This document shows positions 27,712 to 46,238 of a DNA stretch of 64,000 nucleotides, one piece after another. Positions within the stretch are counted from its first letter, which is position 1. Each line of letters opens with the position of its first letter. The notes under the pieces were generated by a model. That model did no database searches, was not told the origin of the DNA, and saw only the letters and a program-made list of their open reading frames with translations. Where the stretch lies: NCBI GenBank assembly GCA_009917695.1, contig JAACJG010000014.1:50959-114958 (forward strand), in the 5' to 3' direction. The position numbers and the translations under genes were made by a program. Origin of the DNA: Candidatus Rifleibacterium amylolyticum (lineage in GTDB: Bacteria; Muiribacteriota; Ozemobacteria; Ozemobacterales; Ozemobacteraceae).

Positions 27712-27741
27712 TCAAGGTCCCGGCAGCACGTGCCGACTTTT
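27712..27741 (+). terminator. candidate intrinsic terminator after hydA
   Basis: 'cggca-gcacg-tgccg' stem-loop followed by ACTTTTTTT. Confidence 0.45.
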
Positions 27742-28058: not shown

Positions 28059-28121
28059 ACCAATGTTCACATCGAGCAAGGCGAAGGCTGGTTCTGATGA
28101 ATAAACCGGGGGGCGAAATGC

Positions 28122-28367: not shown

Positions 28368-28380
28368 GGCAAGACACAAC

Positions 28381-29835
28381 ATGGCAATGAATTACATCAA
28401 CAACGCTTCACTGCTCAAACGCCAGCTCGTCGTCCGCTTTGCCCGCCTCATGTTCACCGGCGAACTCAAAAACAAAATCGATCTGCTGCCGCTGCATCAG
28501 GCGCCGCGTAATTCCGAAGCGGTAAGATGCTGCCTTCATCATGACCGCGCTGTCATCAGATACCGTCTTATCGCTCTGCTCGGCTTTGCCATCGAGAATG
28601 AGAAACCCGATGACGAGGCCCGAACTCTGGCCAGTTATGTGGAAGAAGCCGAAGCGAGAGGTGCCGGGCGAATGGCCGGAAGTGCGCTGACCGTTATCGA
28701 CGAGGCCTGCAGCGCCTGCATTCGCGCGAATTACCGGGTAACCAACGCCTGCCGCGGCTGCGTTGCGCGCCCCTGCATGATGAACTGCCCGAAAAACTGC
28801 ATCTCTTTCGAAAACGGCCAGGCCCATATCGACGAGAAGGTCTGCATCAGCTGCGGCATCTGTGCGAAAGTCTGTCCCTACCATTCGATCGTGTTCCAGC
28901 CGATACCCTGCGAGCAGGCCTGCCCGGTCAATGCGATCGTTCAGGATAAAAACGGCAAGCAGGATATCCTCGCCGACAAGTGCATCAACTGCGGCAAATG
29001 CCTGCAAGCCTGCCCGTTCGGCGCCATCATGGAACGATCGGAAATCTACGAGATCCTGCGCGCAATCACTAACCCGGCCGAAGCCACGGTAGCACTTATC
29101 GCACCTTCTATCGTCGGCCAGTTCAATACCAGCCTCGGCAAACTCGTCACCGCTCTGCGCAAACTCGGCTTCGACCATGTCGTCGAAGTCGCCTGGGGCG
29201 CCGATCTCGCTGCGCAGAAAGAAACCGCTGAGCTGATCGAACGCCTCGAACACGGCCAGACCTGCATGACCTCGTCATGTTGCCCGGCTTACGTCGAAGC
29301 GGTTAAGAAGCATATTACCAATATCAAGCCCCTGGTTTCCGATACTTTGAGCCCGATGCAGTATGCCGGTGAATGGGCCGGCCAGCAATGGCCTGGCGCG
29401 CGCCGCGTCTTCGTCGGTCCCTGTATCGCCAAACGTGCTGAAGCTAAAGCCTCACCTCATATCGAAAATACACTGACCTACGAAGAACTCGGTTCGATAT
29501 TCATCGCCGCCGGCGTTGATGTAGCCGAATGCGAAGAGAGCCGCGCCGATCTCGAAGCTACCAGCGTCGGCCGCAAATTCGCAGTATCCGGTGGCGTCAG
29601 CACTGCCATCAAAAATGCCGCATCAGCCGCTGGCCACAATGTTACCGACAAAGTCATCGACGGGCTCGACAGCAAATCACTCGCCATACTCAAAGCCATC
29701 GACAAGATCGTCAAAAGCGATACCTTCGTCGAAGTCATGTCATGTGAAGGCGGCTGCGTCAACGGCCCCGGCGTCATCAGCAACCCGGCCGTCGCCCGCC
29801 GCTTTCTCGAAAAGATGCTGCAGGAACACCCATGA
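28381..29835 (+). CDS. sensory-type (HydS/group-C-like) [FeFe]-hydrogenase homologue without a PAS domain
   Basis: Two N-terminal 4Fe-4S CxxCxxCxxxCP motifs. Degenerate H-cluster motifs 'SSCCPAY', 'GPCIAKRAE' and 'EVMSCEGGCVNGPG'. Confidence 0.8.
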   Translation: MAMNYINNASLLKRQLVVRFARLMFTGELKNKIDLLPLHQAPRNSEAVRCCLHHDRAVIRYRLIALLGFAIENEKPDDEARTLASYVEEAEARGAGRMAGSALTVIDEACSACIRANYRVTNACRGCVARPCMMNCPKNCISFENGQAHIDEKVCISCGICAKVCPYHSIVFQPIPCEQACPVNAIVQDKNGKQDILADKCINCGKCLQACPFGAIMERSEIYEILRAITNPAEATVALIAPSIVGQFNTSLGKLVTALRKLGFDHVVEVAWGADLAAQKETAELIERLEHGQTCMTSSCCPAYVEAVKKHITNIKPLVSDTLSPMQYAGEWAGQQWPGARRVFVGPCIAKRAEAKASPHIENTLTYEELGSIFIAAGVDVAECEESRADLEATSVGRKFAVSGGVSTAIKNAASAAGHNVTDKVIDGLDSKSLAILKAIDKIVKSDTFVEVMSCEGGCVNGPGVISNPAVARRFLEKMLQEHP

Positions 29836-31604
29836 CGAACACCACAAAGTCACAGAACCCGGTAGTATTCACCAACAAGGCAGAATGCCGCGACTGCTAC
29901 CGCTGTCTGCGCCACTGCCCGGTCAAGGCGATCCGCATGGATAACGGCCAGGCCAGCGTCGATCCTGAGCGCTGCATCGCCTGCGGCACCTGTATCAGAG
30001 AATGCCCGCAGGGCGCCAAGCAGTTCCGCAACGACATCGAAAAAGCGGTCAGACTGCTCGCTTCGCCGCGGCGCATTGCCGTCAGCATCGCCCCTTCGTT
30101 CGCCTCGTTTTACAGTGAGTGGCAGCGCCGACGTCTGCCATCTGCACTGCGTCGGCTCGGCTTTGCCTATATTGCCGAAACCGCTGCCGGCGCTTACCAT
30201 GTCGCTGCCGCCAGCCTGTTGAAAAAACATAAACATGCCGATTCAATCTGCACCGCCTGCCCGGCAGTTGTTGAGTTTATCGAGAAGTATGTTTCTGAGC
30301 GGGTAGACAATCTGCTGCCGGTCGCCTCACCGATGCTCACTCATGCTGCGATGATTCGCGAGCAGCTCGGCCCCAATGCCGGCGTTGTCTTTATCGGCCC
30401 CTGCATCGCCAAGAAAAGCGAAGCCGACAACAGCAGCGGAATGCAGAAAGTTGACTGCGCTCTGACCTTCAAAGAGCTGGACGAGTGGCTTGAACGCGAA
30501 GACATTCAGTTCGATCGTCTTGAAGACAGCCATTTCGATGAAGAACCAGGCGGCGAAGCGCGACTTTTCCCGTTACCCGGCGGTCTGACTCGAACTGCCC
30601 GCATCGGTTCCGACAGTCTTGCAGCTGATATCATCGCGGTCAGCGGCGTTGCTGAGATCCGCACTCTGCTCGCCAACCTCGGCAGACAGGGTTCGCATCT
30701 GTTCATCGAACCGCTTTTCTGCGCACAGGGCTGCGTCGGCGGACCGGGCGCCCCGAAAGAGCGCAATATTTTCGACAGTCGCCATAATCTTCTCGACTAT
30801 GCGATCAGAAACCCCGGCCAGACAGAGCCTGCCGCCAGACCCGAAGAAATCAGCGCAGCCAGCCATAATAGCGCGCAGATAGAGGCGATGCAGCGGGAAT
30901 TCAGCGAAGACGAAATCAGACGGGTTCTCAGCGCGACCGGCAAGAATTCAAAAAGTGACGAACTCGACTGCGGCGCCTGCGGTTATGACTCGTGCCGCGA
31001 AAAAGCGATTGCCGTACTGCGTGGGCTGGCCGAAACTGAAATGTGTATTCCCTATATGCGCCGGCTGGCTGAACAGCGCACCGACCGCATTATCGAAACA
31101 AGTCCGAACGGCATAGTAATGCTCGACGAACATCTCAACATCATCAATATGAATCCGGCTTTCAAAAAGATGTTTCTCTGTTCTGAAGCGGTTCTTGGCC
31201 GACACATTTCGTATCTGGTCGATCCCGAACCATTCGCAAAGGTCGTAACCGGTCGTCAGCAGTTGATTGAAGAAACGGTTAAATACAAGCGTTACAGTCT
31301 GGTCACGCATCAGATAATTTATCGACTCGAAGCTGAGAAGCAGCTGGTCGGCATTTTCGTCAACATCACCGGCAGCCGCCAGAGCATGGAAGAGCTGGCG
31401 CGGTTGCGTCACAGCACGGTTGAGCAGGCACGCGAGATGCTCGAACATCAGGTAAAAATGGCGCAGGAACTGGCGAAATATCTGGGTGAAAGCACGGCCC
31501 GCGGCGAAACTATCATCGAGAACCTGATCAAGTTGACGGCGGGCGATGACAAGGAAGAAAAACCCGGAAGGATAACTGAATGGGATATCTTCACGTCGAA
31601 ATAA
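29832..31604 (+). CDS. sensory [FeFe]-hydrogenase (HydS-like) with a C-terminal PAS domain
   Basis: 4Fe-4S motifs. Degenerate L1 'CTACPAV', L2 'GPCIAKKSE' and L3 'EPLFCAQGCVGGPG'. An extra Cys4 'CGACGYDSC'. PAS 'IVMLDEHLNIINMNPAFKKMF'. Confidence 0.8.
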   Translation: MTNTTKSQNPVVFTNKAECRDCYRCLRHCPVKAIRMDNGQASVDPERCIACGTCIRECPQGAKQFRNDIEKAVRLLASPRRIAVSIAPSFASFYSEWQRRRLPSALRRLGFAYIAETAAGAYHVAAASLLKKHKHADSICTACPAVVEFIEKYVSERVDNLLPVASPMLTHAAMIREQLGPNAGVVFIGPCIAKKSEADNSSGMQKVDCALTFKELDEWLEREDIQFDRLEDSHFDEEPGGEARLFPLPGGLTRTARIGSDSLAADIIAVSGVAEIRTLLANLGRQGSHLFIEPLFCAQGCVGGPGAPKERNIFDSRHNLLDYAIRNPGQTEPAARPEEISAASHNSAQIEAMQREFSEDEIRRVLSATGKNSKSDELDCGACGYDSCREKAIAVLRGLAETEMCIPYMRRLAEQRTDRIIETSPNGIVMLDEHLNIINMNPAFKKMFLCSEAVLGRHISYLVDPEPFAKVVTGRQQLIEETVKYKRYSLVTHQIIYRLEAEKQLVGIFVNITGSRQSMEELARLRHSTVEQAREMLEHQVKMAQELAKYLGESTARGETIIENLIKLTAGDDKEEKPGRITEWDIFTSK

Positions 31605-32728
31605 CCGCAGCCAGCAGTTCGAAACGGGCTGGTGACGCATGCGGCGATGCCTTCAGTTCGTTCCGCACCACCGGCGCGACGGTGCTCATTCTCGCCGACG
31701 GCATCGGCTCTGGCATCAAAGCCAACATCTACGCCACCATGGCGATTTCCCGCCTCGAAAAGCTGCTCAACGACGGCTTTTCGTTACGGCGCGCCTTCAC
31801 TTCGCTTGTCACAACAATGCATGAAGCGCGCGGCACCGACATGCCCTACGCGGTTTTCACCGTCGCCAGAGTGCTCAACAATGGCGAGACGACGGTTCTT
31901 TCATATGAAATGCCCGAAGCGATATTCGTCGGCCGCCATGCTGCGAGCGTTTTGAAAAGGCGCAACACGACTCTCGGCAGCGAGGTTGTCAGCGAATCGA
32001 ATCTTTATCTTGAAGCCGGCGAGGGGCTGCTGCTGTTTTCGGACGGCATCACGCTGGCGGGAATTGGCGGCAGAACGCGCACCGGCTGGAGCAGTGACGA
32101 GGTCTGCCGTTACGTCAACGACCAGCTGGTCACCGGCGCCGAGAAGCGGCTGCTGGCCGAGTCTGTTCATCGTCAGGCCCGTGATCTGTGGGGAAAGAAA
32201 GTCGGCGACGACTGCACCGTGCTCGGCGCCCTGTGCCGCCCCGGCAAGGTCGCCAGCATATTCAGCGGCCCGCCCGCCGACAAAGAGCACGACAGTCGCG
32301 TTGTCGATGAGTTTCTGGCTCTGCCCGGAATCAAAATCGTCTGCGGCGCGACGACCGCCCAGATCGTGGCGCGCCGCCTCAGTCGCCGCCTGCAGATCAA
32401 CCCGGCCGACAGCAGCCTGATCGCCCCACCCGGCTACAGCCTCGAAGGCATCGACCTGGTGACCGAGGGCGCGGTAACGCTCAACCAGCTTTTCAACATT
32501 CTCGACGCCGACCCCGACCATTTCGAACCTGACTCGTCGGTCACCCGCCTCTACGATGCCATCATCAGCGCCGACCGCATCAATTTCATCGTCGGCGGCA
32601 GCAACAACCATGGCCACGCCGACATCGCCTTCAAGCAGCAGGGTATCATGCCGCGCCGCAAGGCAATCGAACTCCTCGCCCAGAAGCTCCGCTCAGAAGG
32701 CCGCCTCGTCGACATCAAACAGGTCTGA
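31580..32728 (+). CDS. PP2C/SpoIIE-family serine/threonine protein phosphatase
   Basis: 'LILADGIGSGIKANIYATMAI' metal-binding motif. GGAAGGA RBS. 25-nt overlap with the HydS gene. Confidence 0.8.
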   Translation: MGYLHVEITAASSSKRAGDACGDAFSSFRTTGATVLILADGIGSGIKANIYATMAISRLEKLLNDGFSLRRAFTSLVTTMHEARGTDMPYAVFTVARVLNNGETTVLSYEMPEAIFVGRHAASVLKRRNTTLGSEVVSESNLYLEAGEGLLLFSDGITLAGIGGRTRTGWSSDEVCRYVNDQLVTGAEKRLLAESVHRQARDLWGKKVGDDCTVLGALCRPGKVASIFSGPPADKEHDSRVVDEFLALPGIKIVCGATTAQIVARRLSRRLQINPADSSLIAPPGYSLEGIDLVTEGAVTLNQLFNILDADPDHFEPDSSVTRLYDAIISADRINFIVGGSNNHGHADIAFKQQGIMPRRKAIELLAQKLRSEGRLVDIKQV

Positions 32729-32999
32729 CCTTCATCGCCGGCCTGCGCTTTTTTCAGGCCAGTAGCGCCAAATGGCTGATAAATCGCTGTTTTCGGCAGT
32801 TTAATTAGGGAAATGCCGGGTGGGCGAAGCATGGAACTGTTTCACGTGGCCAGGGGCCACTGGCGGCAAGATTGGCTGGTTTTCAGGGCGACAAAATGAG
32901 CTGAAACGGCTCACAAAGTCACATACTGGCCGAAATTTCACGCTATCTGCCTCCTAAGCTCATCAGTGCTTCCAAAGATGAGGAATGGGCTGAAATAAC

Positions 33000-33260
33000 C
33001 TACCTCATCTTTATACACACGCTGAGGCTGTGGAAAATGTGGGATTTATCAATTTCCCAGAGAAGATGTTTTATTGCAATCACATCTGCTACTGAACTCA
33101 TGGGAAGACCTAAGCTTGGCCAACAACCAGTGGCTATTTCATCACCAACTCGTATACTCATAAATGGGTTTGAACCGTGAAGAGAAATCATAGGATCACT
33201 GTCGAAAGAATCAACATAAACTTCAACGCGATACTTTACAGGGAGATGATTTGTGGTCAT
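33000..33260 (-). CDS. hypothetical small protein
   Basis: ORF downstream of the TIR operon on the same strand. AT-rich. No motif. Start uncertain. Confidence 0.3.
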   Translation of the reverse strand: MTTNHLPVKYRVEVYVDSFDSDPMISLHGSNPFMSIRVGDEIATGCWPSLGLPMSSVADVIAIKHLLWEIDKSHIFHSLSVCIKMR

Positions 33261-33383
33261 AACTTTGCTCCAAAAGGTAAAATAGGTGCGATCTAATACC
33301 TTATAACACAAACCTCGTCTTGAAAAAATTTCTCTTAGTACTTACGTAGTTAACTTGCCGGTACCTTGATAGGAAATGCAGTC

Positions 33384-34151
33384 TTAACGTTTGTAAATTT
33401 CATATAAACAATCAAGCGGATGTTTCTTCTTAGCGGTCATAAATCGACGATGCCAGTTAAACAAAGTTTCCTTGCCTATTTCTTTCATTTCTTGCAAATT
33501 AACGTCATATTCAATATTCAGACCGGCTCTATAACCTTCGCTTTCTAAAATCTTGGCTAGTTTTGCTACAGATTTATCCCTGTGCTCAATTGGTGCTTTA
33601 TAACGGATAACTTCAGAAATTGCAATTTCCGAATAAAGCCATGGTGATTTTGTTTTGGTGACAGCGTTCTCAGATGATATTGAGTTTGGTGTATTGAGAA
33701 AACACACACATTCTGTTTGATCAATCAGCTTTGTTAGTGCAGCAATAAGCATCATATGGACATGGCTGGTAGAGCCATTTCTTTTCTGGTAGCAGTATGT
33801 TTCGCTGCCAGGTATGACACAATATTTGTCGTCTATTTGTTTAAGCAAGTCATCGGCGTAGCCCCACACGCAAGAATCCACAAAAAGATTAAGATCAAAT
33901 TTTTGCTTTAACCAGCCGGCCAGGCTTATGGCAAGATCTTTGTCAGCATGAGAGTGTGATAAAAATATGTCTGCATCTACCTGAGGAAACCAGTGCTGCT
34001 GTAAACGGCTACCATCCAAGCGATCTTCCTTTATTAAAAAGGTTTCCAATGATTGTTTAATCATTGTGGAAGTCTGGTTGTAAAGCCTTAAGCCGACATC
34101 ATAATAGGAACCAAAATCGTTCCCCAGCGTTAATTTGAATCTACTAAACAT
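33384..34151 (-). CDS. TIR-domain protein with a ~55-aa N-terminal extension
   Basis: 'DIFLSHSHADKDLAISLAGWLKQKF...SPWLYSEIAISEV'. ATG at 34151 with a GAGGTG RBS. The track GTG start is 12 nt upstream. Confidence 0.75.
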   Translation of the reverse strand: MFSRFKLTLGNDFGSYYDVGLRLYNQTSTMIKQSLETFLIKEDRLDGSRLQQHWFPQVDADIFLSHSHADKDLAISLAGWLKQKFDLNLFVDSCVWGYADDLLKQIDDKYCVIPGSETYCYQKRNGSTSHVHMMLIAALTKLIDQTECVCFLNTPNSISSENAVTKTKSPWLYSEIAISEVIRYKAPIEHRDKSVAKLAKILESEGYRAGLNIEYDVNLQEMKEIGKETLFNWHRRFMTAKKKHPLDCLYEIYKR

Positions 34152-34193
34152 TGAACACCTCACTAAAAAACATAGGAAATATGCGAAGCGGCG

Positions 34194-34784
34194 TTAAAGA
34201 CTGGATAACCACAGTAGAATTTCTTTGAACGGAATTACATATAGCAAAATAAAAACATAAGTAATGAGAAAGAAAATAGCTATTCTGCGTTCCAAATTTG
34301 TTACAGGATGGTAGATTACAGGGTTTTCACCTTTAGCTAAAGCAAACCACTCTGCAGTAAAGAGAGCCAGCGGCAAATGAGTTTCAATCTGTTCAATAAC
34401 TTTGAATTTACCGCAGTTTAACTGCTTATAAGAGTCGATGACACGAGCCCAATAATAACAAATCGCAATGCCAAAAATTGGGAGTATATACGCCATAAAA
34501 CGCAAAGAAATATCTGCGTCCTTGCCATATAAATAGCCTAAAATAGTGAATAACCCGGCGTTAAGAGTTAGGAAAAATGAATTTGCTGATTGTCTTTTTT
34601 CATAAACCTTTTCGGTAGAATCTACCAATAGCTTGTATTGCTCGAGAACGATGGTTATTTCTTCCTTATTGGCAGTAGAACTGTTTTTTTTATTAAAAAG
34701 CTTTGTAGCAAGTAATTCTACTTGAGAACTATCTTGAGCTGGTAAAGGGGCTTTGGCTGCAGGTGCCTGTAACGAATCAGTCAT
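34194..34784 (-). CDS. small three-helix membrane protein (SLATT-like candidate effector)
   Basis: Hydrophobic helices at ~aa 70-85, 95-115 and 165-185 of the 196-aa product. ATG at 34784 with a GAGG RBS, 7 nt after the upstream TIR gene's stop. Confidence 0.65.
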   Translation of the reverse strand: MTDSLQAPAAKAPLPAQDSSQVELLATKLFNKKNSSTANKEEITIVLEQYKLLVDSTEKVYEKRQSANSFFLTLNAGLFTILGYLYGKDADISLRFMAYILPIFGIAICYYWARVIDSYKQLNCGKFKVIEQIETHLPLALFTAEWFALAKGENPVIYHPVTNLERRIAIFFLITYVFILLYVIPFKEILLWLSSL

Positions 34785-34791
34785 AATGGCC

Positions 34792-35208
34792 TCACTTGCA
34801 AAGAGATCTGATACCATCAACAATAGATGAAGCGTTCCAGTGAACTATTTCATCAGCATTGTTCTGAACTACGGTCGAAACTTGTTGATTACCCCAAGGA
34901 ACAACAGCCAAAATAGGCTTTGCAACCAGAAATTCATTTTTGGCAATTTTTATCTCATTGTTTATCCAGGTGCTAAACGTTGCATATTTCCCGGCCATAA
35001 TCACAACAACGTGAACCGCTGCCATCTGCCTGTAAATTGAATCATATAAGGCTTTTGAACTGGGAGCGTTATGGATGGGATCATGCTTTGGGACAGAAAA
35101 ATCCTTGTATGAAAAATAGGGATAACCATCTAGAAGACTGATTAGGCGATTATAGTCGTCACTATATGACCAGGAATGACTGATAAACAGATTGTATGGC
35201 GATGGCAT
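34792..35208 (-). CDS. TIR-like (DUF1863/ThsB-like) protein
   Basis: 'FISHSWSYSDDYNRLISLL...VVVIMAGKYATFSTWINNEIKIAKNEFLVAKPILAVVPW'. GGAGG RBS. Confidence 0.8.
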   Translation of the reverse strand: MPSPYNLFISHSWSYSDDYNRLISLLDGYPYFSYKDFSVPKHDPIHNAPSSKALYDSIYRQMAAVHVVVIMAGKYATFSTWINNEIKIAKNEFLVAKPILAVVPWGNQQVSTVVQNNADEIVHWNASSIVDGIRSLCK

Positions 35209-35388
35209 AGATCCTCCGGTTGATTAATTGTAGTGAAGTCACGTTTATATTTTAAAGATTTTGACATTTTTCAATGCCTCCTGTAAAATATAAGTTGACA
35301 GGTGTCGATATATAGGTTAACATTCTTTCTTTTGTATGTCAACCCCCGGTGGAGGTTACAGTATTCATGCGCTTTATAAGGATTACAT

Positions 35389-35775
35389 ATGCCGATAAAG
35401 AGTATTCAACGAGGGTCATCTTTTGAAATCTGTTGTTGGAAGGAAGTCGGAGGAGAATGCCCGCTTGAAGATTTTTTTAAAGAGCTAAAAGACACTGGAC
35501 ACCAGGACTTGGATCAGATGTTGCGTCTGATTCATAGATCAGCAGAGCTGGAGCCGCCGCGCAACATTGAAATGTCGAGAGCCCTGGAGGGAAAGAATGC
35601 CGAAGGATTGTGGGAATTCAAGGCCGGAGCAATCAGGGTTATGTGGTTTTACGAACGCAACAAGATTATTATCTGCACCCACAGTTTTTTGAAAAAAGGG
35701 CGCAAGACTCCCGCGCCAGAGATAGAAAGAGCCCAAAACACGAGGAGTAAATACTATGCCGAACAAAAACGTTAA
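35389..35775 (+). CDS. HigB-like (Gp49/DUF891, RelE-superfamily) toxin
   Basis: 'GLWEFKAGAIRVMWFYERNKIIICTHSFLKKGRKTP..EIERA' matches the Gp49-like pattern. Confidence 0.75.
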   Translation: MPIKSIQRGSSFEICCWKEVGGECPLEDFFKELKDTGHQDLDQMLRLIHRSAELEPPRNIEMSRALEGKNAEGLWEFKAGAIRVMWFYERNKIIICTHSFLKKGRKTPAPEIERAQNTRSKYYAEQKR

Positions 35776-36181
35776 GGGAATCGAGACCAGCAACTTCTTT
35801 GCGACAATGTTTGCAGAAGCAGAAAGCCGCGACGAGTTTCATGTCGCAGGTGTGAAAATCGAGATTGCCGAACAAATTTACCGGATGATGGAAAAACGAA
35901 ACATAACTCAGTCAGATCTTGCTCGAAAACTTGGAAAGAATCGAGCTTACATTTCCAAGATTCTCAAAGGGACAACCAACTTCACGGTAGAAACTCTTGT
36001 GCTGATAGGTAGAAAACTTGATGCTGAATGGGACTTCCAGCTAACTGACGCCGAGAAACCGGAAAAAAGAGTCTTTTACATGGAATACGGAAGTATCAAA
36101 CCGCCAACAAACAGGGTTTTGGCGGCGAATGACTTTTGCGACGAGATTGGTTGGGAACCAACCGTCAAATGGGGGCAATAA
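35756..36181 (+). CDS. XRE-family HTH antitoxin with a C-terminal extension (candidate chaperone-addiction region)
   Basis: HTH 'ITQSDLARKLGKNRAYISKILKG'. GAGGAG RBS. 20-nt overlap with the toxin. Confidence 0.75.
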   Translation: MPNKNVKGIETSNFFATMFAEAESRDEFHVAGVKIEIAEQIYRMMEKRNITQSDLARKLGKNRAYISKILKGTTNFTVETLVLIGRKLDAEWDFQLTDAEKPEKRVFYMEYGSIKPPTNRVLAANDFCDEIGWEPTVKWGQ

Positions 36182-36184
36182 CAA

Positions 36185-36655
36185 ATGACTCTATCACCTT
36201 TGCAACTCCACCGCTATTTTGCTGAAGAGATATTCTGCAAAGCCAATCCCGACTTTGATAAAGATAAAGAAGTTAAAATAAAAGACTTTCAGGTGTTTTT
36301 TGAAACTGGCGAAGATAAAAACCCGCTTTTGCGCAGGATCAGACTGACTGTTGAACAAACCCTAAGCAAAGACGGCAACGAACCATTTGCTTTCAAGATT
36401 GTTATGGTCGGATTCTTTGAAGTTATGAAAGAATTTTTCGAAAGCCAAGGATCAGAAAAAACAGAACAGCTTGTTAATGTTAACGGTCCGGCTCTGCTGT
36501 ATTCCGCTGCCCGAGAACTATTGGCACTTGTTTCCGGTCGTGGGCCATATGCCGATGATAGCCTGAATGTTTTGCTGCCTTCTATTACTTTTTTGAATTT
36601 CAAGCCAATGAAACCGGTAAAAGAACCTAAACAGGCAAAGACTAAAAAGAAGTAG
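36185..36655 (+). CDS. SecB-like chaperone (third component of a toxin-antitoxin-chaperone module)
   Basis: Alignment to SecB: 'LQLHRYFAEEIFCKANPDF' is similar to 'QIQRIYTKDISFEAPNAP'. 'PALLYSAARELLALVSGRGPY...LPSITFLNF' is similar to '[30 protein letters not shown]'. Confidence 0.7.
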   Translation: MTLSPLQLHRYFAEEIFCKANPDFDKDKEVKIKDFQVFFETGEDKNPLLRRIRLTVEQTLSKDGNEPFAFKIVMVGFFEVMKEFFESQGSEKTEQLVNVNGPALLYSAARELLALVSGRGPYADDSLNVLLPSITFLNFKPMKPVKEPKQAKTKKK

Positions 36656-36664
36656 CTGTTTTGA

Positions 36665-37003
36665 TTAGAACTTGTTTGGAATGCGTTCGGAGCCGAATTT
36701 TACGGCTTCGAATTGGATGTTGTTGGCATAGCCTTTGAAGGCGATCTGGCGAACGAAGGCCGTGAACAGTTCTTTGTCCTGGCATTTGTCGGTCCAGTAG
36801 GTTGATTTTGAGAAGTAGATGTGTTTATCAGGATTCTTCTTTTCAAGACTGAACTTGTCGTCGTTGGCGGCTTTCCAAAATTTACGGCGGGCGGCGAGAA
36901 TGGCGTTGATATCGTCAGCATCGTTATAAAGGCCTGACATGGTATGCTTTTCTTCATATTTGAAGATTATGTATTCGTTCTCGGCATGGGCCATGAAAAA
37001 CAC
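36665..37003 (-). CDS. hypothetical protein, possibly 5'-truncated (the in-frame upstream extension to ~37180 has no start codon)
   Basis: GTG start. The upstream 60 codons are open and protein-like. The 3' end is duplicated at 38594-38699. Confidence 0.45.
   Translation of the reverse strand: MFFMAHAENEYIIFKYEEKHTMSGLYNDADDINAILAARRKFWKAANDDKFSLEKKNPDKHIYFSKSTYWTDKCQDKELFTAFVRQIAFKGYANNIQFEAVKFGSERIPNKF
36669..36774. repeat. ~106-bp direct repeat, copy 1 (copy 2 at 38594-38699, ~91% identical)
   Basis: 'aacttgtttggaatgcgttcggagccgaattttacggcttcgaattggatgttgttggcatagcctttgaaggcgat...'. Confidence 0.7.
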
Positions 37004-37205
37004 AACTTCGCAATAGAGAGTGTTACCGACATTTACGGTTATTACATCGGGCTTGTCGGGATCTATCGGGATGATATCGCCTTCGTTCGGTGGCTCTTTG
37101 AAGCGTTCACCAGGAATGTAGATTTCTTTGAAAGTATCGGGCTCGTCTTCGGCGGCGTCGGGGTGACGGATCAGGGCGATAGCATTAGTTCATTTGCAGA
37201 TAATG

Positions 37206-37724
37206 TCACTGGTTAACGCCCAATCTTTGTTTCAATTCTTTGACGGCCAGGTTGCGTTCTCTGGCGCGGCCACCTCTGACAGCATCGACCAATGCCAGCA
37301 ATTCATAAAGACATTGATCTGATTCGGCGGCGCGGGGAACTGATTCATACAGCGGCAGAAACGACTGGCCCCAGGTGTTGCCCTTTGCATAAGGCCAGAC
37401 GGGCGGAATTTCCTGATTATCGGCCAGAACATCTTTTAACGGGCCAAATGAATGCGCAGTCGGGAGGCCGCGCGTCATTTCGCCGCGTTCAGCGGGGAAA
37501 ACATAGCGCAGGCCATGTATAATAAACTCTGACAAGGCATTAACATTCGGTTCGCGAGTTTGCGGATGGATAAGCTGCGATTTTACGGCTCTTTTAAAGC
37601 CGGCGTGGACTTCGGAAGAGCTCATGCATAGCTCTTTGGCAAGAGATGCGAAGTTCCAGGGCGAGTTGGCCGCAGTTTTTGCGACCAGCTTCAGGAGTAT
37701 TACGATATCTTGTGGTTTCAGCAT
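37206..37724 (-). CDS. winged-helix transcriptional regulator
   Basis: N-terminal wHTH 'DIVILLKLVAKTAANSPWNFASLAKELCMSSSEVHAGFKRAV'. A palindromic operator lies immediately upstream. Confidence 0.55.
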   Translation of the reverse strand: MLKPQDIVILLKLVAKTAANSPWNFASLAKELCMSSSEVHAGFKRAVKSQLIHPQTREPNVNALSEFIIHGLRYVFPAERGEMTRGLPTAHSFGPLKDVLADNQEIPPVWPYAKGNTWGQSFLPLYESVPRAAESDQCLYELLALVDAVRGGRARERNLAVKELKQRLGVNQ

Positions 37725-37738
37725 AATAATATTATATT

Positions 37739-37756
37739 CGCTATTCGCGAATAGCG
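37739..37756. promoter_or_regulatory. 18-bp perfect palindrome 'cgctattcgcgaatagcg' (candidate operator), 15 bp upstream of the regulator gene start
   Basis: Perfect dyad. A related 34-bp palindrome recurs at ~38781-38814. Confidence 0.5.
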
Positions 37757-37917
37757 CAAACCATTTTATAAAAACAGTTTCAGTGATGACTAAGTTCTTG
37801 CAGCTTTTTCTTGGGAGCCCCCTTCAGGGGGCGGCGGGCAGGAAGCGCCAGAGAGGGGCCCTACTGGCGCGGTTTTTGCAGCCTCTAAAAAAGATCGAGC
37901 TGGAATACAGCAACTCT

Positions 37918-37946
37918 TTGACAATTATACATCATGACGCTATAAT
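37918..37946 (+). promoter_or_regulatory. consensus sigma70 promoter TTGACA-17-TATAAT for the RHH-RelE operon
   Basis: 'ttgaca attatacatcatgacgc tataat', 18 nt before the GAGGTG RBS and ATG at 37964. Confidence 0.65.
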
Positions 37947-37963
37947 GTATGTAGAGGTGACTT

Positions 37964-38233
37964 ATGAAAAGAACACAAATCTATCTGGAAGCGGAACAGC
38001 AGGATTTTCTGGAAAACATGGCCTTTGTCATCGGGAAAAAGAATCGCAAAAAGGTTTCTATTTCTGAATTAATAAGGTCGGCAATAGAATTATTGCGCGA
38101 AAAATATGATTCCAAGCAGCTTGAGGATGAAACAGAACTGATTCTTAAAAGCGAACATCTGATGGCTGGCATTAAAAAAGCCAGAAATGAAAAGAAGCTG
38201 CTTTCTCACGAAGAAGTGTTTGGTAAAAAATGA
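37964..38233 (+). CDS. ribbon-helix-helix (CopG/ParD-like) antitoxin
   Basis: 'MKRTQIYLEAEQQDFLE' RHH N-terminus. ATGA-style overlap with the toxin gene. Confidence 0.7.
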   Translation: MKRTQIYLEAEQQDFLENMAFVIGKKNRKKVSISELIRSAIELLREKYDSKQLEDETELILKSEHLMAGIKKARNEKKLLSHEEVFGKK

Positions 38234-38577
38234 CATTCACCCCGCATTATAAGCCACAGTTCTTCAAAGATGTTAAAACTTACGCTTCGATGAAAAGCCA
38301 GATAGAAAAGAAGGTTAACAGCATTCTGGCAGATCCTTACCACAACACAGAACCGCTGGGAAGCCAAAAAGGTCATGATTTAAGGGGTTTGCGCAGCAAG
38401 CGCGTTGATAAAAACTTCCGTATTATTTTTGCAATCTGTGAGGAATGCAAAGAACTTTTCCCAGAGAAAGATCAGCCCTGTCGCTATTGTGATCCTAATT
38501 TGCCGGCCAAATCAGTCATATTTTTTACAGCCAGGCCACATAAAGTCGTATACAAAGAGAAAAAACCACTTGAATAA
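38230..38577 (+). CDS. RelE/ParE-family toxin with a CxxC...CxxC insertion
   Basis: 'NFRIIFAICEECKELFPEKDQPCRYCD...KVVY'. Coupled to the RHH gene. Confidence 0.65.
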   Translation: MTFTPHYKPQFFKDVKTYASMKSQIEKKVNSILADPYHNTEPLGSQKGHDLRGLRSKRVDKNFRIIFAICEECKELFPEKDQPCRYCDPNLPAKSVIFFTARPHKVVYKEKKPLE

Positions 38578-38593
38578 CGGCTTCGATGATCAA

Positions 38594-38699
38594 AACTTGT
38601 TCGGGATGCGTTCGGAGCCGAATTTTATGGCTTCGAACTGGATGTTGTTGGCGTAGCCTTTGAAGGCGATTTGGCGGACGAAGGCTGTGAACAGTTCTG
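38594..38699. repeat. ~106-bp direct repeat, copy 2
   Basis: ~91% identical to 36669-36774. Confidence 0.7.
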
Positions 38700-38780
38700 T
38701 TTGCCACTGAAAAGGTAATAGTTCGCCTGCTTTTTTCTTGTCTAGAGAACAGTTTAGCCTGAAAATAATGTCAGGACGGT

Positions 38781-38814
38781 ATTTATTCGTTATTCGCGAA
38801 TAGCGAATAAATAC
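38781..38814. promoter_or_regulatory. 34-bp near-perfect palindrome 'tatttattcgttattcgcgaatagcgaataaata' (second operator-like copy)
   Basis: Shares the core ttcgNtattcgcgaatagcg with the site at 37739-37756. Confidence 0.5.
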
Positions 38815-38916
38815 CATGCCAAATTGCTGATCGGGATGAGAAACTGGAAGATATAAAAAATGTAGTTGTCGCGCTGGGCGGGCAAGTTGAAGAAAGCCAT
38901 GACAGCAAGTCTTTCT

Positions 38917-39285
38917 CTAGTTTTGCAGGGGGCCCGGTTCGATTGCCTGGTGGTCCTCAGGTTTGAGATCTTTGTAAACGTCGTGCCACACATCGAATTT
39001 TTCACCGACTTGCCAGCTTTCGACATCAGTTCTACTTTGCAGCCATGAAATAATTCTCTGCAATCGTTCTTCGCAATGCTCCTGCAGACCAAGTTCGACG
39101 ACTATATCAAGCATGTTTTTGCTACCACCGCCACCGCAGCGGCAGTCATTTGCTTCGACTGCTTCCTCTATGAAAGCATCAAGAAATTTATCAAAATGAT
39201 TACTGCAGTTGCGGTAAATGATGATCTGGCGACCCCATTCCGTGAATTCTCCAACATGTTTCTTTTTGCGCATTCTCTTTTTCAT
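38917..39285 (-). CDS. hypothetical protein (122 aa, Cys-containing)
   Basis: Protein-like composition. 'CRCGGGG'. Weak RBS. Confidence 0.4.
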   Translation of the reverse strand: MKKRMRKKKHVGEFTEWGRQIIIYRNCSNHFDKFLDAFIEEAVEANDCRCGGGGSKNMLDIVVELGLQEHCEERLQRIISWLQSRTDVESWQVGEKFDVWHDVYKDLKPEDHQAIEPGPLQN

Positions 39286-39338
39286 AACGCTTTAATACCC
39301 CTACAATGCTCTCTATCAGGCCATAATAGCTGTTTGAG

Positions 39339-39749
39339 TCAAGATAAGGCCAGTTCAAACTTTTTCTTATTCTTAATTCGATAGATTGTGAAATCTCGAT
39401 CTATAGTGGCGATCCTGGTGATATTTAACTCTTCGGCCAGATAGACGAGACAAGCGTCTGCAAAATCCATGGGAAGATCTTTGTATTTGATAGTAAGATC
39501 TCTAAGTCTATTAAATGCAGGAACTTCTATATTATGGACTTCGACAGCACCCTTGCTGATCCAATCCAGGAAATCAATTTGCGCATTGCGGTTGAAATCC
39601 AGCAAATGAAGGGTTTCGGTGATTGATGCCAAGGTCGTGACAAGAGGCAGCTTGTTTTCTCTAACAAAGTTCACCGCTTTTTTATGATGTTTGTCATCAG
39701 CATCAAATAACGCTATCAGCGGGCCTGAATCAATCAGAATTTTTTGCAT
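39339..39749 (-). CDS. vapC: PIN-domain toxin VapC
   Basis: 'ILIDSGPLIALFDADDKHH...IATIDRDF' with the PIN acidic residues. Confidence 0.85.
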   Translation of the reverse strand: MQKILIDSGPLIALFDADDKHHKKAVNFVRENKLPLVTTLASITETLHLLDFNRNAQIDFLDWISKGAVEVHNIEVPAFNRLRDLTIKYKDLPMDFADACLVYLAEELNITRIATIDRDFTIYRIKNKKKFELALS

Positions 39750-39987
39750 TTCTTTTGTCCTGGAGCTTTTGCTTCAAAATTGCTTTGCGGTTTTCTGACA
39801 GGTTAGACTTGCCGCTGGAATATTTACCAAAAAGAGATTTGCCGGCAGTCCAGGCATTGTTTTGTTCTAATTGCTTAAAATACGCCCTCAGGCTTTTCCG
39901 GACAATTTCAGATTTAGGAATACCCAACATTTCAGCAATGTTATTCAGCTTTTCTTCCATGTCAGGGCTTAATCGTAAAGTTAACAT
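39730..39987 (-). CDS. vapB: RHH antitoxin VapB
   Basis: 'MLTLRLSPDMEEKLNNIAEMLGIPKSEIVRKSL'. ATG at 39987 with an AGGGGG RBS. Overlaps vapC. Confidence 0.75.
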   Translation of the reverse strand: MLTLRLSPDMEEKLNNIAEMLGIPKSEIVRKSLRAYFKQLEQNNAWTAGKSLFGKYSSGKSNLSENRKAILKQKLQDKRNAKNSD

Positions 39988-40105
39988 TTTCACACCCCCT
40001 GTATTACATATAGTAATACAAATGATTCAAGTCTGCAAGCTGTCTTGGAGGCTTCTGGGGGCCGGTGGGCAGAAATTGGCTGCTGATCATGCCGCCAGGT
40101 GGTAA

Positions 40106-40324
40106 GTGCGGCAGAGTTCAGTTTTTCCCTTATTCGTATTTTATCGCCGGGAAATTGTTCAACTAAAAAAGTGTGAAAGAACCGGGCGACCTCTCGGCAG
40201 TCAAGAATTTATCGAAAAGCTGGAAAAATTAGCAATCGAAGGCTCCTTCCTGGAAAACCGGGGCCAAAAGGAAAACCGCAAGGCCAGGCACTTAAATAAG
40301 ATGTCCCGAATGGCACTAAGATAA
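40106..40324 (+). pseudogene. C-terminal remnant of a REP-associated tyrosine transposase (RAYT/IS200-like)
   Basis: 'RTGRPLGSQEFIEKLEKL' resembles the conserved RAYT C-terminus (...RGRPLGSE.F.E.IE..LGR). No N-terminal HUH or Tyr domain. Followed by 'cgtaatcg/cgattacg' palindromic repeats. Confidence 0.45.
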
Positions 40325-40489
40325 GAAGCTGAATTTTGAGAATCGTGCGCGTAATCGATTTGCGCTACTGATTTTTCGATTACGATTACCACTTCGTTGA
40401 TTACTAGCACCGCTTCGCTGAGCACGAGTAAAACATCTGAGCTTAGATCTTTCGTTAACCTAGTGGCATTCTAAGATGTCCCCGGAACT

Positions 40490-40529
40490 TCGAAGCTGAG
40501 AAGCAGCTGGTCGGCATTTTCGTCAACAT
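40490..40529. repeat. 40-bp exact duplicate of an internal segment (31327-31366) of the PAS-HydS gene
   Basis: 'tcgaagctgagaagcagctggtcggcattttcgtcaacat' is identical in both places. Confidence 0.7.
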
Positions 40530-40609
40530 TTTTGCCGTGGCTGGATCATGATCCGGGCAATATGCTAAACTGATTCCAGAATGCTCAAAGAGGGAAAATG
40601 GGAGGAAAT

Positions 40610-41044
40610 ATGACAGATACTACATCCAGAAGATTGATTAACTGTGGTTTGTTTGTTCTGCGTGTTGGCCTTGGGATAATAATGATGATGCACGGAGTTC
40701 CCAAATTGATTGCTGGTCCGGAGTTGTGGGGAAAGCTTGGCATGGCCATGGGCGTATTTGGAATTAACTTTGCTCCCGCCTTCTGGGGGTTCATGGCAGC
40801 TGCTTCTGAGGGAATTGGCGGCCTGTTCCTGCTTCTCGGGGTTGGCGTGCGCATATTTGCGGCCCTGATGTCTTTCACCATGCTGGTGGCCACTTTGATG
40901 CACTATGGGAAGGGTGACAGTTTCGGCGTGTATTCGCACGCCTTATCGCTGGCCATAGTTTTCTTTTCACTGATGTTCTCTGGTGGCGGAGAATGGAGCA
41001 TTGGGGCCAGAATAAAGGCCATATCAGGTCGTTGGTATCAGTAG
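40610..41044 (+). CDS. DoxX-family membrane protein
   Basis: Four hydrophobic helices. 'LRVGLGIIMMMHGVPKL'. GGGAGG RBS before the internal ATG. Confidence 0.8.
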   Translation: MTDTTSRRLINCGLFVLRVGLGIIMMMHGVPKLIAGPELWGKLGMAMGVFGINFAPAFWGFMAAASEGIGGLFLLLGVGVRIFAALMSFTMLVATLMHYGKGDSFGVYSHALSLAIVFFSLMFSGGGEWSIGARIKAISGRWYQ

Positions 41045-41055
41045 GAGAAATCCGA

Positions 41056-42171
41056 ATGGGAAAAATTGTGATAATTGGCGGTGGGTTTGCCGGACTGGCG
41101 GCGGCTGAAGGCCTCGCATGGCAGCGCCATTCCCATGATGTCACGCTTATCGATACCCGTGCGACAAGCCAGTTTTTGCCTCTGCTTCCCGATATCATCG
41201 GGCATTCTCTGCCCCCGGGCATTCTTGGCTACTCCTTGAAAACTGCGGCTCAGCGCTGGGGTTATAACTTTTGCCAGGCGAAGGTTATCAGCGTAGACCT
41301 TCTTCGCAGGATCGTAATAACCGACCAGAAAGAAGTTCCATACGATGGCCTGATCATTGCCAGTGGTTCAGAAACCAGTTTTAAGGCTTGCGAGTCCTGG
41401 CCCCAAAGGCCGCTGATCCTTGATTCTATCGACGACGCCGTTCGCTTGCGCGATCTGGCTGAGATTGATGATAACAGTCATTACGTCGTCTGCGGCGGTG
41501 GTTACACTGGCGTAGAATTGGCTTCAAATCTGAATTATCTCTTTAAACGCAGAAAAAGCCGGAACAGAGTCAGCATAGTCGAACATGGCCGCAATCTCTG
41601 CAAGGCTCTTTCCACAAAACAGATTGCCTTTATCGAGAATGCTGTTCGCCGTGCAGGGATCGAGGTGAAGGTCGGAACAACAGTGGCAGGTTCTGATCAG
41701 GACAGATTATGGCTTGCTGATGGAACAGTAATCTCTCAGGCCCGTGCGATATGGGCCGCCGGGGTCTGTACCGCACAGTTCGTTCAAAGTCTGCCGTTTT
41801 CGAAAACTCGGCAGGGGCGTCTAGAGGTGAATTCATGCCTGGCACTGGAAAGCGGTGTCTTTGCTGCGGGTGACGCATGTGGTTTCAGATCAGGAAAAGA
41901 TGAGCTGCGCATGAGCGTTCAATTCGCTCTAACCCAGGGGTGGCACGCAGCCAGCAACATCCTCAGGTATTTCGAAGGTCGAAATCTGCTTCCTTATAGC
42001 CCGATGGACCCGGGATGGGTCGTTCCACTTGCCAATGGCCGTGGATGCGGCAACATTCTGGGCATGGAGATGTTTGGCCGCCTGCCATATGTGCTTCATA
42101 CGCTGATATGCATGGCGCGTTCTTTCGGCCTTGCTAATCGCCTTCAGCTGGCCAGACACTACGGCAAATGA
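41056..42171 (+). CDS. FAD/NAD(P)-binding oxidoreductase (NDH-2 / sulfide:quinone oxidoreductase-like)
   Basis: 'KIVIIGGGFAGLAAA' and a second 'VVCGGGYTGVELA' Rossmann motif. AGGAGAAA RBS. Confidence 0.75.
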   Translation: MGKIVIIGGGFAGLAAAEGLAWQRHSHDVTLIDTRATSQFLPLLPDIIGHSLPPGILGYSLKTAAQRWGYNFCQAKVISVDLLRRIVITDQKEVPYDGLIIASGSETSFKACESWPQRPLILDSIDDAVRLRDLAEIDDNSHYVVCGGGYTGVELASNLNYLFKRRKSRNRVSIVEHGRNLCKALSTKQIAFIENAVRRAGIEVKVGTTVAGSDQDRLWLADGTVISQARAIWAAGVCTAQFVQSLPFSKTRQGRLEVNSCLALESGVFAAGDACGFRSGKDELRMSVQFALTQGWHAASNILRYFEGRNLLPYSPMDPGWVVPLANGRGCGNILGMEMFGRLPYVLHTLICMARSFGLANRLQLARHYGK

Positions 42172-42374
42172 GCGCCTTTGCTGAGATCCTTCCAAAAATC
42201 TTCTATTTCTTCTGGGCTGCCATAAGCCAGTCCATCACCGGCTAAAATCCACGGTGTATTGTTTGAGAAGACATTTGCTGTCGTGTTAAAATTCTTTCAG
42301 ATCAACAAATTTAGTTGGCAACAGGAAGTTCTAACGCTGTTTTGTTGATGCCAGGACCGACAGGAGAGAAAGTA

Positions 42375-43226
42375 GTGACAAAGAAAATATCTGGCTTTTC
42401 TGGAACTTTGCGAGTGTTTTTTCTTCTGATTATCGCTATATTCTGCTATTCGCAGCTATTTGCCCAGAAGACTTCCGAGCCCCCGGAAAGTATGGACGAT
42501 TTTTTCAGAGAGAACTTTCCGCTCGAATCAACTTTAAAACAGATTGACGCAGATATTGCCAGAAATCCTGGCAATCCGGCTCTCTGGCAGACGCGCGCAA
42601 CGCTGCTGGAATCACATGGCAAAACCGACGAAGCTCTGCTGGCTCTCGAAAAAGCGCTGGCGCTGATACCCGAACCAGCAGCTTCCCAGCCAAATCAGAA
42701 AGGCAAAGTAAGAATAGTTACCGGCCACAACTATGCCGGCGCATTGTTTGATATAGCAAAGATTTATCTGGCGATGAACCGACGTGATGAAGCAAGAAAG
42801 ACGCTTCAGCGTGCGGTGCAGGGCGATTCACCACACATGATGGCCTGCACCTATCTTGGCAATATCTTTCTTGATGAGGGCAATTCTGCCGAGGCCCTTA
42901 AGTATTACAATCTGATGGGCCACAACCTGAGCACCAGCGGTAAGATCAGCAAGGGCAACGCTCTTTACAATCTCAAACGTTACGATGAAGCCATTGCCGA
43001 ATACGAGGTTGCCGCCCATTGGAAGCCTGAATTGCCTTCTGTTTTGCGGCACCTGGGCGACGCTTATCTCAGAGCCGGGCGCTATGCTGATGCGCTGAAT
43101 CTATATCAGCGTTATGTGAAATCTGCCCGCCAGAAAAAGATTCCAGAATCAGAAATAGCGCCGGTTATCAGTCGTCTTGAGCAACTGAAAAAACATCCAA
43201 AATCTGGTTCAACAAAGCATGATTGA
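42375..43226 (+). CDS. TPR-repeat secreted protein
   Basis: Several 34-aa TPR units. GTG start with a GGAGAGAAAG RBS gives signal peptide 'VTKKISGFSGTLRVFFLLIIAIFCYSQLFAQ'. Confidence 0.65.
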   Translation: MTKKISGFSGTLRVFFLLIIAIFCYSQLFAQKTSEPPESMDDFFRENFPLESTLKQIDADIARNPGNPALWQTRATLLESHGKTDEALLALEKALALIPEPAASQPNQKGKVRIVTGHNYAGALFDIAKIYLAMNRRDEARKTLQRAVQGDSPHMMACTYLGNIFLDEGNSAEALKYYNLMGHNLSTSGKISKGNALYNLKRYDEAIAEYEVAAHWKPELPSVLRHLGDAYLRAGRYADALNLYQRYVKSARQKKIPESEIAPVISRLEQLKKHPKSGSTKHD

Positions 43227-43308
43227 AGCAGCCAGATATTTTTGTGAAGCCATTATCAGCGAACATGGCGTCAATTCGAACAGCCAAGGCTAAATCTCCG
43301 AGATGGGG

Positions 43309-46221: not shown

Positions 46222-46238
46222 TTATGTCACCAGCTTTC

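Follow-up and report, generated by a model that had tools for sequence, protein, structure and literature searches.

Integrative elements such as e14 and phage 21 at icd target the 3' end of a gene and carry a replacement end, leaving an intact gene, the island and then a displaced partial 3' copy in direct orientation, and tRNA-gene islands with tandem accretion are of the same kind. Sequential displacement by homology-facilitated illegitimate recombination, which needs no dedicated mobility genes, is known from type VI secretion system (T6SS) effector-immunity arrays in Vibrio cholerae and from C-terminal displacement at Rhs loci (PMC5361080); there, new modules arrive directly downstream of a conserved upstream anchor, and earlier 3' ends are shifted downstream as direct-orientation orphan fragments, the copies differing in sequence. 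Core defence hotspots between conserved core genes, described in Pseudomonas aeruginosa (cDHS; PMC10250203) and Escherichia coli (PMC10121019), hold different systems in one slot in close strains, have atypical GC and often lack an integrase. Here we describe a locus with likenesses to all three, in 64,000 nucleotides of Candidatus Rifleibacterium amylolyticum (contig JAACJG010000014.1, positions 50,959 to 114,958; hereafter the window), a Candidatus Riflebacteria (Ozemobacteraceae/Rifleibacterium) lineage, in which an island lying between the genes hydS and PP2C on the left and DoxX on the right ends in a 40-bp copy of an internal hydS segment. The slot downstream of hydS-PP2C is a conserved defence and toxin-antitoxin (TA) hotspot whose cargo is swapped among close relatives, and we think the odds slightly favour reading the 40-mer as a non-functional recombination scar in this integrase-less hotspot, left by homology-anchored insertion, illegitimate joining and subsequent trimming.

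The 40-mer, TCGAAGCTGAGAAGCAGCTGGTCGGCATTTTCGTCAACAT, is present in two exact copies in the window, both on the plus strand, one inside hydS at 31327-31366 and the other at 40490-40529, between a lineage-specific segment and the conserved region upstream of DoxX and 69 bp upstream of DoxX itself; as direct repeats the two enclose 9.16 kb. The right-hand copy is preceded in the window by CCCCGGAACT and followed on the DoxX side by TTTTGCCGTGG. The pair is the sole exact repeat of at least 28 nt across the window, no third copy appears there when up to 3 mismatches are tolerated, and none of 100 shuffles contained any match, the chance expectation being none. Upon aligning 600 bp around each copy, we find zero similarity outside the 40 bases and no decayed flanks, and viral contigs hold neither an additional copy nor its left flank. 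A perfect copy about 9 kb from its parent had been reported in an earlier note on this DNA, and the exact pair, its sharp edges and the read contigs all agree with that report.

Read-level support comes from the Logan contigs, an independent assembly (k = 31) of SRR6186653. Three of these, spanning 27904-31356 (L038), 31337-40337 (L005) and 40500-52171 (L035), are exact (100%) substrings of the window. The end of L038 is the last 31-mer containing base 31326, the start of L005 is the first 31-mer containing 31367 and the start of L035 is the first 31-mer containing 40530; since the contigs break at the repeat boundaries expected for this k, two different sequences precede the 40-mer in the reads and two follow it. 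L035 shows that DoxX upstream DNA follows the 40-mer in real reads. Furthermore, L038 halts at 31356 and not at 31366, indicating that a second, non-hydS predecessor of the 40-mer exists in the reads, whereas a deletion joining hydS to DoxX as the only alternative structure would have extended L038 to 31366. The duplication is real, and an assembly artefact is largely excluded.

The left anchor explains where the 40 bases came from. The core gene hydS (29832-31604, plus strand) encodes a sensory [FeFe]-hydrogenase-like protein with Pfam Fe_hyd_lg_C, 4Fe-4S and PAS matches and has orthologues in Riflebacteria loci; the parent copy of the 40-mer occupies codons ~499-512, on the C-terminal side of the PAS region. 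The second anchor gene encodes a PP2C/SpoIIE-type phosphatase by Pfam (31580-32728, plus strand), and its 3' part recurs displaced in the islands of relatives. In nine other Riflebacteria loci hydS carries the orthologous 40-mer segment with 0-6 substitutions, and a second copy is absent from all nine. Because the segment is orthologous and single-copy in the relatives' hydS, hydS is the donor, as had been proposed, and the 40-mer is no multi-copy repeat foreign to hydS. The parent 40-mer lies in a locally conserved patch of ~50 bp of hydS, so that the 40/40 identity cannot date the duplication. A search for a breakpoint signal at the left copy was abandoned, since identity to the relatives is mosaic throughout PP2C and, with the conserved patch, allows neither age nor crossover to be inferred. 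The DNA from 31367 to 32990 has core-like GC and is orthologous in all relatives.

Upon comparing the slot with that of relatives, we observe that the loci L001-L004, L006-L009 and L018-L021 are 90-98% identical to the window in hydS/PP2C or DoxX, yet carry different cargo. For the sister lineage represented by L001-L004, contig L008, made up of the 3' part of hydS, PP2C and a further 4.6 kb, shares a 118-bp overlap with L001 at 99%, which links hydS-PP2C of this lineage to DoxX across a different island of ~9.6 kb. That island contains a type III restriction-modification (R-M) system (MTase_III, E = 1.4e-140, with a REase_III helicase) and HicAB, together with the same ribbon-helix-helix (RHH) gene, a truncated RelE and VapBC. 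L001-L004 are ~97% identical to the window on both sides and differ only between 40050 and 40529, a local swap of ~480 bp in the window for a segment of ~490-496 bp of the L001 type, with both flanks intact. More distant Riflebacteria have no DoxX near hydS-PP2C. Cargo is also shared at higher identity than the core: the block holding the candidate defence gene PDC-M21A has 95% nucleotide identity to L023, against 77-80% for the core hydS/PP2C of L023, where it again lies directly downstream of PP2C, and L040 carries the block 32991-37177 at 97.5% identity, in another genomic context. Cargo identity above core identity between genomes indicates that the cargo is horizontally mobile. Relatives thus do not carry the same genes contiguously, which was the synteny comparison that the earlier note had called for, and nothing indicates that the island was relocated, as that note had suggested; the slot is a conserved hotspot with different cargo in every close relative. 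Two further comparisons were set aside. L023 and L021 do not form a clean filled and empty site for the M21A cassette, the flanking segments being rearranged, and the similarity over 74 bp that links the L001 segment to the right-hand end of the cargo in L006 is only part of a small conserved open reading frame (ORF) and is uninformative.

Composition and alignments place the boundaries of the island. GC is 0.36-0.46 over ~33000-40500 against 0.55-0.65 in the left flank (hydS, PP2C), which bears out the composition shift seen earlier; the right flank, at 0.46-0.54 (~0.50), contrasts less with the cargo. The variable low-GC cargo, the island proper, occupies 32991-40529, ~7.5 kb. The region 32729-32990 downstream of PP2C is common to relatives and is not cargo: every lineage conserves the ~50 bp that follow the PP2C stop codon, 32780-32860 is common to the window, L008 and the L006 fragment, 32900-33000 is common to the window and L018, and homology of the cargo block to L040 begins at 32991. 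On the right, the sister lineage is homologous again from 40530, the first base past the 40-mer, and the conserved DoxX upstream region with DoxX (40530-41044, plus strand) forms the right flank in both lineages. The earlier extent of 32729-40560 therefore describes a genuine accessory, exchanged island, with a left boundary that has to be moved ~260 bp to the right, the cargo starting at ~32991-33000.

We next consider core-gene fragments, for which the variable DNA of 12 close-lineage loci, 59.6 kb in all, was surveyed. All of those found derive from left-flank genes and stand in direct orientation (plus strand), with cargo to their left, and they amount to five independent displacement events, in L006, L007, L018 (the same as in L021), L019 and the window itself, so that the 40-mer is not an isolated event and belongs to a class of displaced fragments that recurs in five independent islands. 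The fragments start at different positions (31327, 32063, 32401, 32452 and ~32569), and those of the other islands are longer (58-470 bp), the 40-mer being the smallest scar. In L006 a complete PP2C is followed by 4 kb of cargo and by a further PP2C copy running from 32401 to 30 bp past the stop codon; its two copies are only 94.2% identical to each other, which suggests that donor and recipient copies differed and speaks against a fresh tandem duplication. The window 40-mer is too short and too conserved for assignment to a donor or a recipient lineage. In L019 the 112-bp repeat D1, described below for the window cargo, is joined to PP2C at 32452, and L007 retains a decayed 58-bp piece of PP2C that includes the stop-codon region. 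Contigs L018 and L021 come from two samples and share the same VapBC block and a segment starting at 40050 (95.7% identical to the window) that ends at 40241 and is joined to PP2C at 32063. Microhomology at these junctions varies, from CTGG within GAAGGC..CTGG in L019 and CCCGGCC in L006 to only 1 bp in L018. At the right junction of the window, TTCGTCAACAT aligns with TTCATCAAAAG of L001, sharing TTCrTCAA, 8 of 11 bases, which has a probability of ~1e-3 by chance.

This pattern resembles sequential displacement at T6SS and Rhs loci in its conserved upstream anchor, in the new modules placed directly downstream without dedicated mobility genes and in the orphan 3' ends in direct orientation, which in L006 differ in sequence from the intact copy. 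In contrast to those loci, the anchor here is a housekeeping or signalling operon, hydS-PP2C, instead of a polymorphic toxin gene, the displaced pieces are functionless instead of reusable toxin tips or immunity genes, and the window fragment is only 40 bp long and derives not from the last anchor gene but from the one preceding it. The likeness to core defence hotspots lies in the atypical GC, in the lack of an integrase and in the slot and its contents, which comprise a Thoeris-like cassette, TA modules and PDC-M21A in the window, whereas the sister lineage has HicAB and a type III R-M system there. Unlike the described hotspots, this one belongs to an uncultured candidate phylum, is small (4-10 kb) and has unusually legible junction scars.

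Features that could account for mobility were searched for throughout the locus. Neither the window island nor the larger island ORFs scanned in relatives yielded an integrase or recombinase domain, none was found between the PP2C copies in any relative's island, and the 64-kb window contains no tRNA or tmRNA gene; an integrase-mediated island was rejected on this basis. Scanning with a home-made attC search (R'' RYYYAAC ... R' GTTRRRY hairpins) and not the IntegronFinder model, we obtained 0 strict candidates in the 64 kb against 0-6 in shuffles, and relaxed candidates are not enriched in the island. An origin from an integron, or from a cluster of attC sites lacking an integron integrase (CALIN), was rejected as well, since the window has no intI and no attC-like sites above the shuffled background. 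Separately, in the assembly that contains L040 (GCA_964542965.1, CAZIVH010000042.1), reverse-complement positions 1-135 encode the C-terminus of a tyrosine recombinase whose best model is TIGR02249 (integron integrase; E = 2.2e-12); it lies ~75 bp from the start of the block 32991-37177, with no attC-like sites found. Used as a tblastn query, this IntI-like fragment has no match in the window. The right-hand 40-mer copy matches no Rfam family (E <= 1), shows no promoter or terminator enrichment and folds no better than shuffles (z = 0.36). A CRISPR spacer or a guide RNA of the kind used in homing by TnpB, IscB or CAST was rejected, there being no flanking repeats, no Rfam match and no Cas or TnpB context. 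As no integrase, attC, tRNA or RNA feature is present, illegitimate, microhomology-assisted recombination is the best reading of the locus.

Under the explanation that we favour, cargo would enter or be duplicated while hydS/PP2C pairs homologously on the left, and the incoming or duplicated DNA would be joined illegitimately, at its far end (...40489), to hydS at 31327, giving a displaced second copy of the hydS 3' part and PP2C to the right of the cargo. A deletion mediated by the TTCrTCAA microhomology (8/11) would then remove the displaced copy and the DNA up to DoxX, so that 40 bp remain. The intermediate junction would read GTCCCCGGAACTTCGAAGCTGAG...GTCAACATCACCGGCAGCC, that is, flank, 40-mer and the continuing 3' end of hydS, and the lineage of L018 and L021 would instead have lost 40242 through 32062, its PP2C junction being the product expected if that intermediate had undergone another deletion. 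Both the order of these steps and the existence of the intermediate are what we infer. Intact anchors, new cargo, an illegitimate junction and a displaced anchor piece followed by older DNA are together the product expected of homology-anchored insertion with illegitimate far-end joining. Recombination of this kind that dragged along a piece of hydS had been suggested before, and that part of the suggestion gains from the lack of attachment-site machinery, the strain-variable junction and the 8/11 microhomology, while its wording of a relocated island finds no support; the alternative then offered, an earlier insertion in hydS that was later resolved, comes close to the duplication and trimming favoured here. 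Several points weigh against our explanation. The proposed intermediate (...40489, the 40-mer, then the continuing hydS 3' end) has not been observed, and the L018/L021 junction could be an independent event and not a derivative of a shared intermediate. A 9-kb duplicate normally collapses by homologous recombination, leaving no scar. The left junction 40489|40490 has no detectable microhomology and falls in 40338-40499, the only stretch without an independent contig. The survey found no right-flank fragment either, a weak control since conservation of the right flank is limited to the closest lineages, and Riflebacteria, an uncultured lineage, are not known to have natural competence or another route of DNA uptake.

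A one-step event could also leave such a patch. While the L001-type segment between VapB and DoxX was being replaced in a single illegitimate event, a 3' end that was broken or invading would copy 40 nt of hydS from 9 kb away and switch template a second time at the TTCrTCAA microhomology beside DoxX, in which case the long displaced copy never existed. The sister lineage does differ by no more than a local swap of ~480 for ~496 bp between intact flanks, the patch is short, exact and sharply bounded, and its right edge has the significant 8/11 microhomology; yet the left edge lacks microhomology, and such templated filler explains neither why L018 and L021 join the segment starting at 40050 to PP2C nor why longer hydS/PP2C fragments (58-470 bp) recur in other islands. 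We regard it as rather doubtful when taken alone. That the 40-mer is a scar of illegitimate recombination by one of these two routes, duplication and trimming or one-step filler, we consider very probable. Site-specific integration offers a different account, in which an element entered hydS with the 40-mer as att core and carried a replacement hydS 3' part and PP2C, its integrase and the displaced end being lost later. Direct repeats do bracket 9.16 kb, elements of this type, as at icd, classically leave the 3' end of a gene displaced in direct orientation, and the same cargo block lies 75 bp from the IntI-like C-terminus in L040. Unlike e14 and phage 21, however, the window island and the relatives' islands between PP2C copies yielded no integrase or recombinase; fragment starts vary with the lineage, the junctions show microhomology instead of a common crossover core, the right-hand copy continues into DoxX upstream DNA and not into a displaced hydS 3' end, and 31367-32990, which would have been carried in, is core-like in GC and orthologous in all relatives. 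This account is improbable.

We consider it more improbable still that a transposon carried the 40 nt by 3' transduction, an IS200/RAYT-like or rolling-circle element sitting in hydS just upstream of 31327, moving to the DoxX upstream region and decaying to 440 bp. The 40-mer does directly adjoin the lineage-specific 440-bp segment (40050-40489), but that segment has no other copy in the window or the compared loci and no Rfam match or omega-RNA-like structure, transposase homology is absent from every search made (Pfam, NCBIfam, word-index, plasmid tblastn and exhaustive phmmer), and the other displaced fragments would go unexplained. There is little more than a slight chance that the structure arises from a chimeric join or a strain mixture, for instance a co-occurring deletion variant leading from the 5' part of hydS through the 40-mer to DoxX. 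The lineage is metagenome-derived and known from a single read set: exact-protein look-ups with HydS, PP2C, VapB, VapC, YggL, 8xMP and the 371-aa Pyr_redox_2 oxidoreductase downstream of DoxX recover its hydS–DoxX region solely in SRR6186653, exact 8xMP copies occur in further assemblies (L039–L043), none of which spans either 40-mer copy, and the stop of L005 at 40337, where the uncovered stretch begins, is without explanation. Against this, the second, non-hydS predecessor implied by the end of L038, the passage of L035 from the 40-mer into DoxX upstream DNA and the 100% identity of all three contigs to the window speak for the structure as assembled. Least credible of all is a function for the copy, whether as antisense RNA against hydS mRNA, as a homing guide or as a recombination switch deleting the hydS 3' part, PP2C and the island. 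It is a perfect 40-nt match to a sensor gene, and direct repeats of 40 bp are near the minimum for RecA-mediated deletion, which would predict occasional loss of the 9.16-kb unit; but the copy is oriented like hydS, so that a sense transcript cannot pair with hydS mRNA, it has no minus-strand promoter, terminator, structure (z = 0.36), Rfam family, repeat or Cas/TnpB context, and it is missing from all relatives, including the sister lineage with the same DoxX.

The defence and TA content of the window cargo consists of two ThsB genes, PDC-M21A, VapBC, HigB/HTH and an RHH/RelE-like pair; orf103 is also part of the island. The leftmost operon is on the minus strand and comprises a ThsB-type TIR protein of 259 aa (33384-34163; PADLOC ThsB PDLC00430, E = 2.6e-81, with a weak Pfam TIR_2 match), an 8xMP-family membrane protein (34194-34823; Pfam PF24838, E = 1e-36; 72 homologues, all PF24838) and a second ThsB_TIR protein of 138 aa (34792-35208; Pfam PF08937, E = 1.5e-14; PADLOC ThsB). 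The TIR genes noticed earlier thus turn out to be two ThsB-type genes flanking an 8xMP gene. Thoeris-type TIR systems with non-canonical (membrane) effectors are known, 29 types having been catalogued (bioRxiv 10.64898/2025.12.03.692087), and the resemblance consists in ThsB-type TIR genes beside a small multi-pass membrane protein in one operon of a defence island. The ThsB TIR protein characteristic of Thoeris is present by both PDLC00430 and PF08937, no SIR2, Macro or SLOG domain occurs in the cassette, and the adjacent 8xMP protein is only a candidate effector, with no PADLOC model and no solved relative. In contrast to systems with SIR2, Macro or SLATT effectors, the candidate effector is of the 8xMP family (PF24838), and there are two TIR genes; the operon is a candidate Thoeris-type system with a membrane effector. 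Together with the adjoining HigB/HTH/SecB-like module, the ThsB–8xMP–ThsB operon (33384-35208, minus strand) forms a conserved block in at least three contexts, including L039, L040 and L041.

That adjoining module (35389-36655, plus strand) has the three genes of a toxin-antitoxin-chaperone arrangement, a HigB/Gp49-like toxin, an HTH antitoxin and a SecB-like chaperone, with Pfam Gp49 and HTH_3 matches and weak SecB-like ones (E = 0.03 in Pfam, 0.0017 in NCBIfam). At 36662-37177 (minus strand) there follows a gene copy truncated at its 5' end, relatives having versions of 165-193 aa; the 3' end of this copy is the repeat D1a (36662-36773), and PDC-M21A (PADLOC, E = 2.8e-48) lies at 37206-37724 (minus strand). 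The RHH antitoxin and RelE/YoeB-like toxin pair (37964-38577, plus strand) gives weak matches and is conserved in L001, where the toxin is truncated. D1b (38587-38698, minus strand) is another internal scar, in which the 3' end of the 36662-37177 gene reappears over 112 bp, displaced and 91% identical; D1a and D1b form a direct repeat that brackets PDC-M21A and the RHH/RelE pair. Near-identical operator-like palindromes, TATTCGCTATTCGCGAATAGCG, stand at 37726-37769 and 38778-38815, upstream of M21A and of the chimeric orf75. A YggL-like protein (38917-39285, minus strand; Pfam PF04320, E = 3.6e-15) precedes the VapC (PIN) and VapB (RHH) pair (39339-39993, minus strand), which is common to L001-L004, L021 and L037. 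Of the four TA loci proposed earlier, VapBC is solid, two more, the HigB/HTH/SecB-like and RHH/RelE-like modules, are plausible, with SecB and RelE weakly matched, and the fourth, called a regulator cassette, is instead the PADLOC candidate PDC-M21A.

The cargo closes with the 440-bp segment (plus strand), the first 192 bp of which are common to L018 and L021 and are joined there to the PP2C interior. Its ORF at 40106-40324 had been read as a RAYT remnant, a reading that gained no family or homologue in Pfam, NCBIfam, word-index search or plasmid tblastn; an exhaustive phmmer search against 1.84 billion representatives returned one match, a spurious low-complexity repeat protein. With no homology across six different searches, a RAYT or IS200-IS605 (Y1 transposase) remnant was rejected. 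The tail of the ORF, GRPLGSQEFIEKLEKL, resembles the C-terminal tails of COG1943 transposases, a likeness that the searches do not support.

Elsewhere in the window and in neighbouring contigs, we made several further observations. A second scar of the same architecture is a 137-bp internal fragment (54440-54576) of a Lyase_1/argininosuccinate-lyase-like gene (54011-55195), whose copy at 63006-63142 is 8.6 kb downstream, 91% identical, sharp-edged, intergenic and in direct orientation, ~150 bp upstream of an ORF of the IS3-type HTH_Tnp_1 family (63292-63606). A direct repeat of 61 nt, 85% identical, occurs at 50174-50234 and 51423-51483, 1.25 kb apart. Just right of the island lies another variable segment: compared with L001 and L002, the window has 119 bp extra (42205-42323) between the gene of a 392-aa Pyr_redox_2 oxidoreductase (40993-42171) and TPR genes, and an extra block of ~6 kb (43289-49410) that encodes a PAS/HisKA kinase of 970 aa and a response-regulator-cyclase. 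The stretch 27640-27933, just before the hydrogenase cluster, shows a small rearrangement or inversion relative to L022 (HGW-Riflebacteria-2), of which positions 5976-6110 match 27933-27796 reversed; the Logan contig L038 likewise begins within this stretch, at 27904. Additionally, L006, L007 and L011, from different assemblies and lineages (71-95% identity), all start at ~31548-31557, 23-33 bp upstream of the PP2C start codon, which suggests that in several samples the assembly graph branches where hydS meets PP2C, possibly owing to additional displaced copies.

Overall, the feature is genuine and ordinary, with no new machinery or principle implied, and what it adds is a recurrent, directional process at a conserved hotspot. 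Its value is modest, as a base-level example from an uncultured candidate phylum of how an integrase-less defence and TA hotspot is remodelled. The 40-bp direct repeats predict that the 3' part of hydS, PP2C and the island are occasionally lost jointly as one 9.16-kb unit. The five junctions that tie cargo to fragments of upstream core genes support recombination in flanking homology with sloppy far-end joining as a route of defence turnover. It is possible, and we put it forward tentatively, that homology-anchored insertion, with illegitimate joining at the far end, is the main driver of cargo turnover at this hotspot, a displaced piece of hydS or PP2C staying behind in every round and the pieces thereby forming a readable stratigraphy of acquisition. 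If this is general, such scars could explain how systems are gained at core defence hotspots free of mobility genes in many bacteria, and could serve to order acquisition events.

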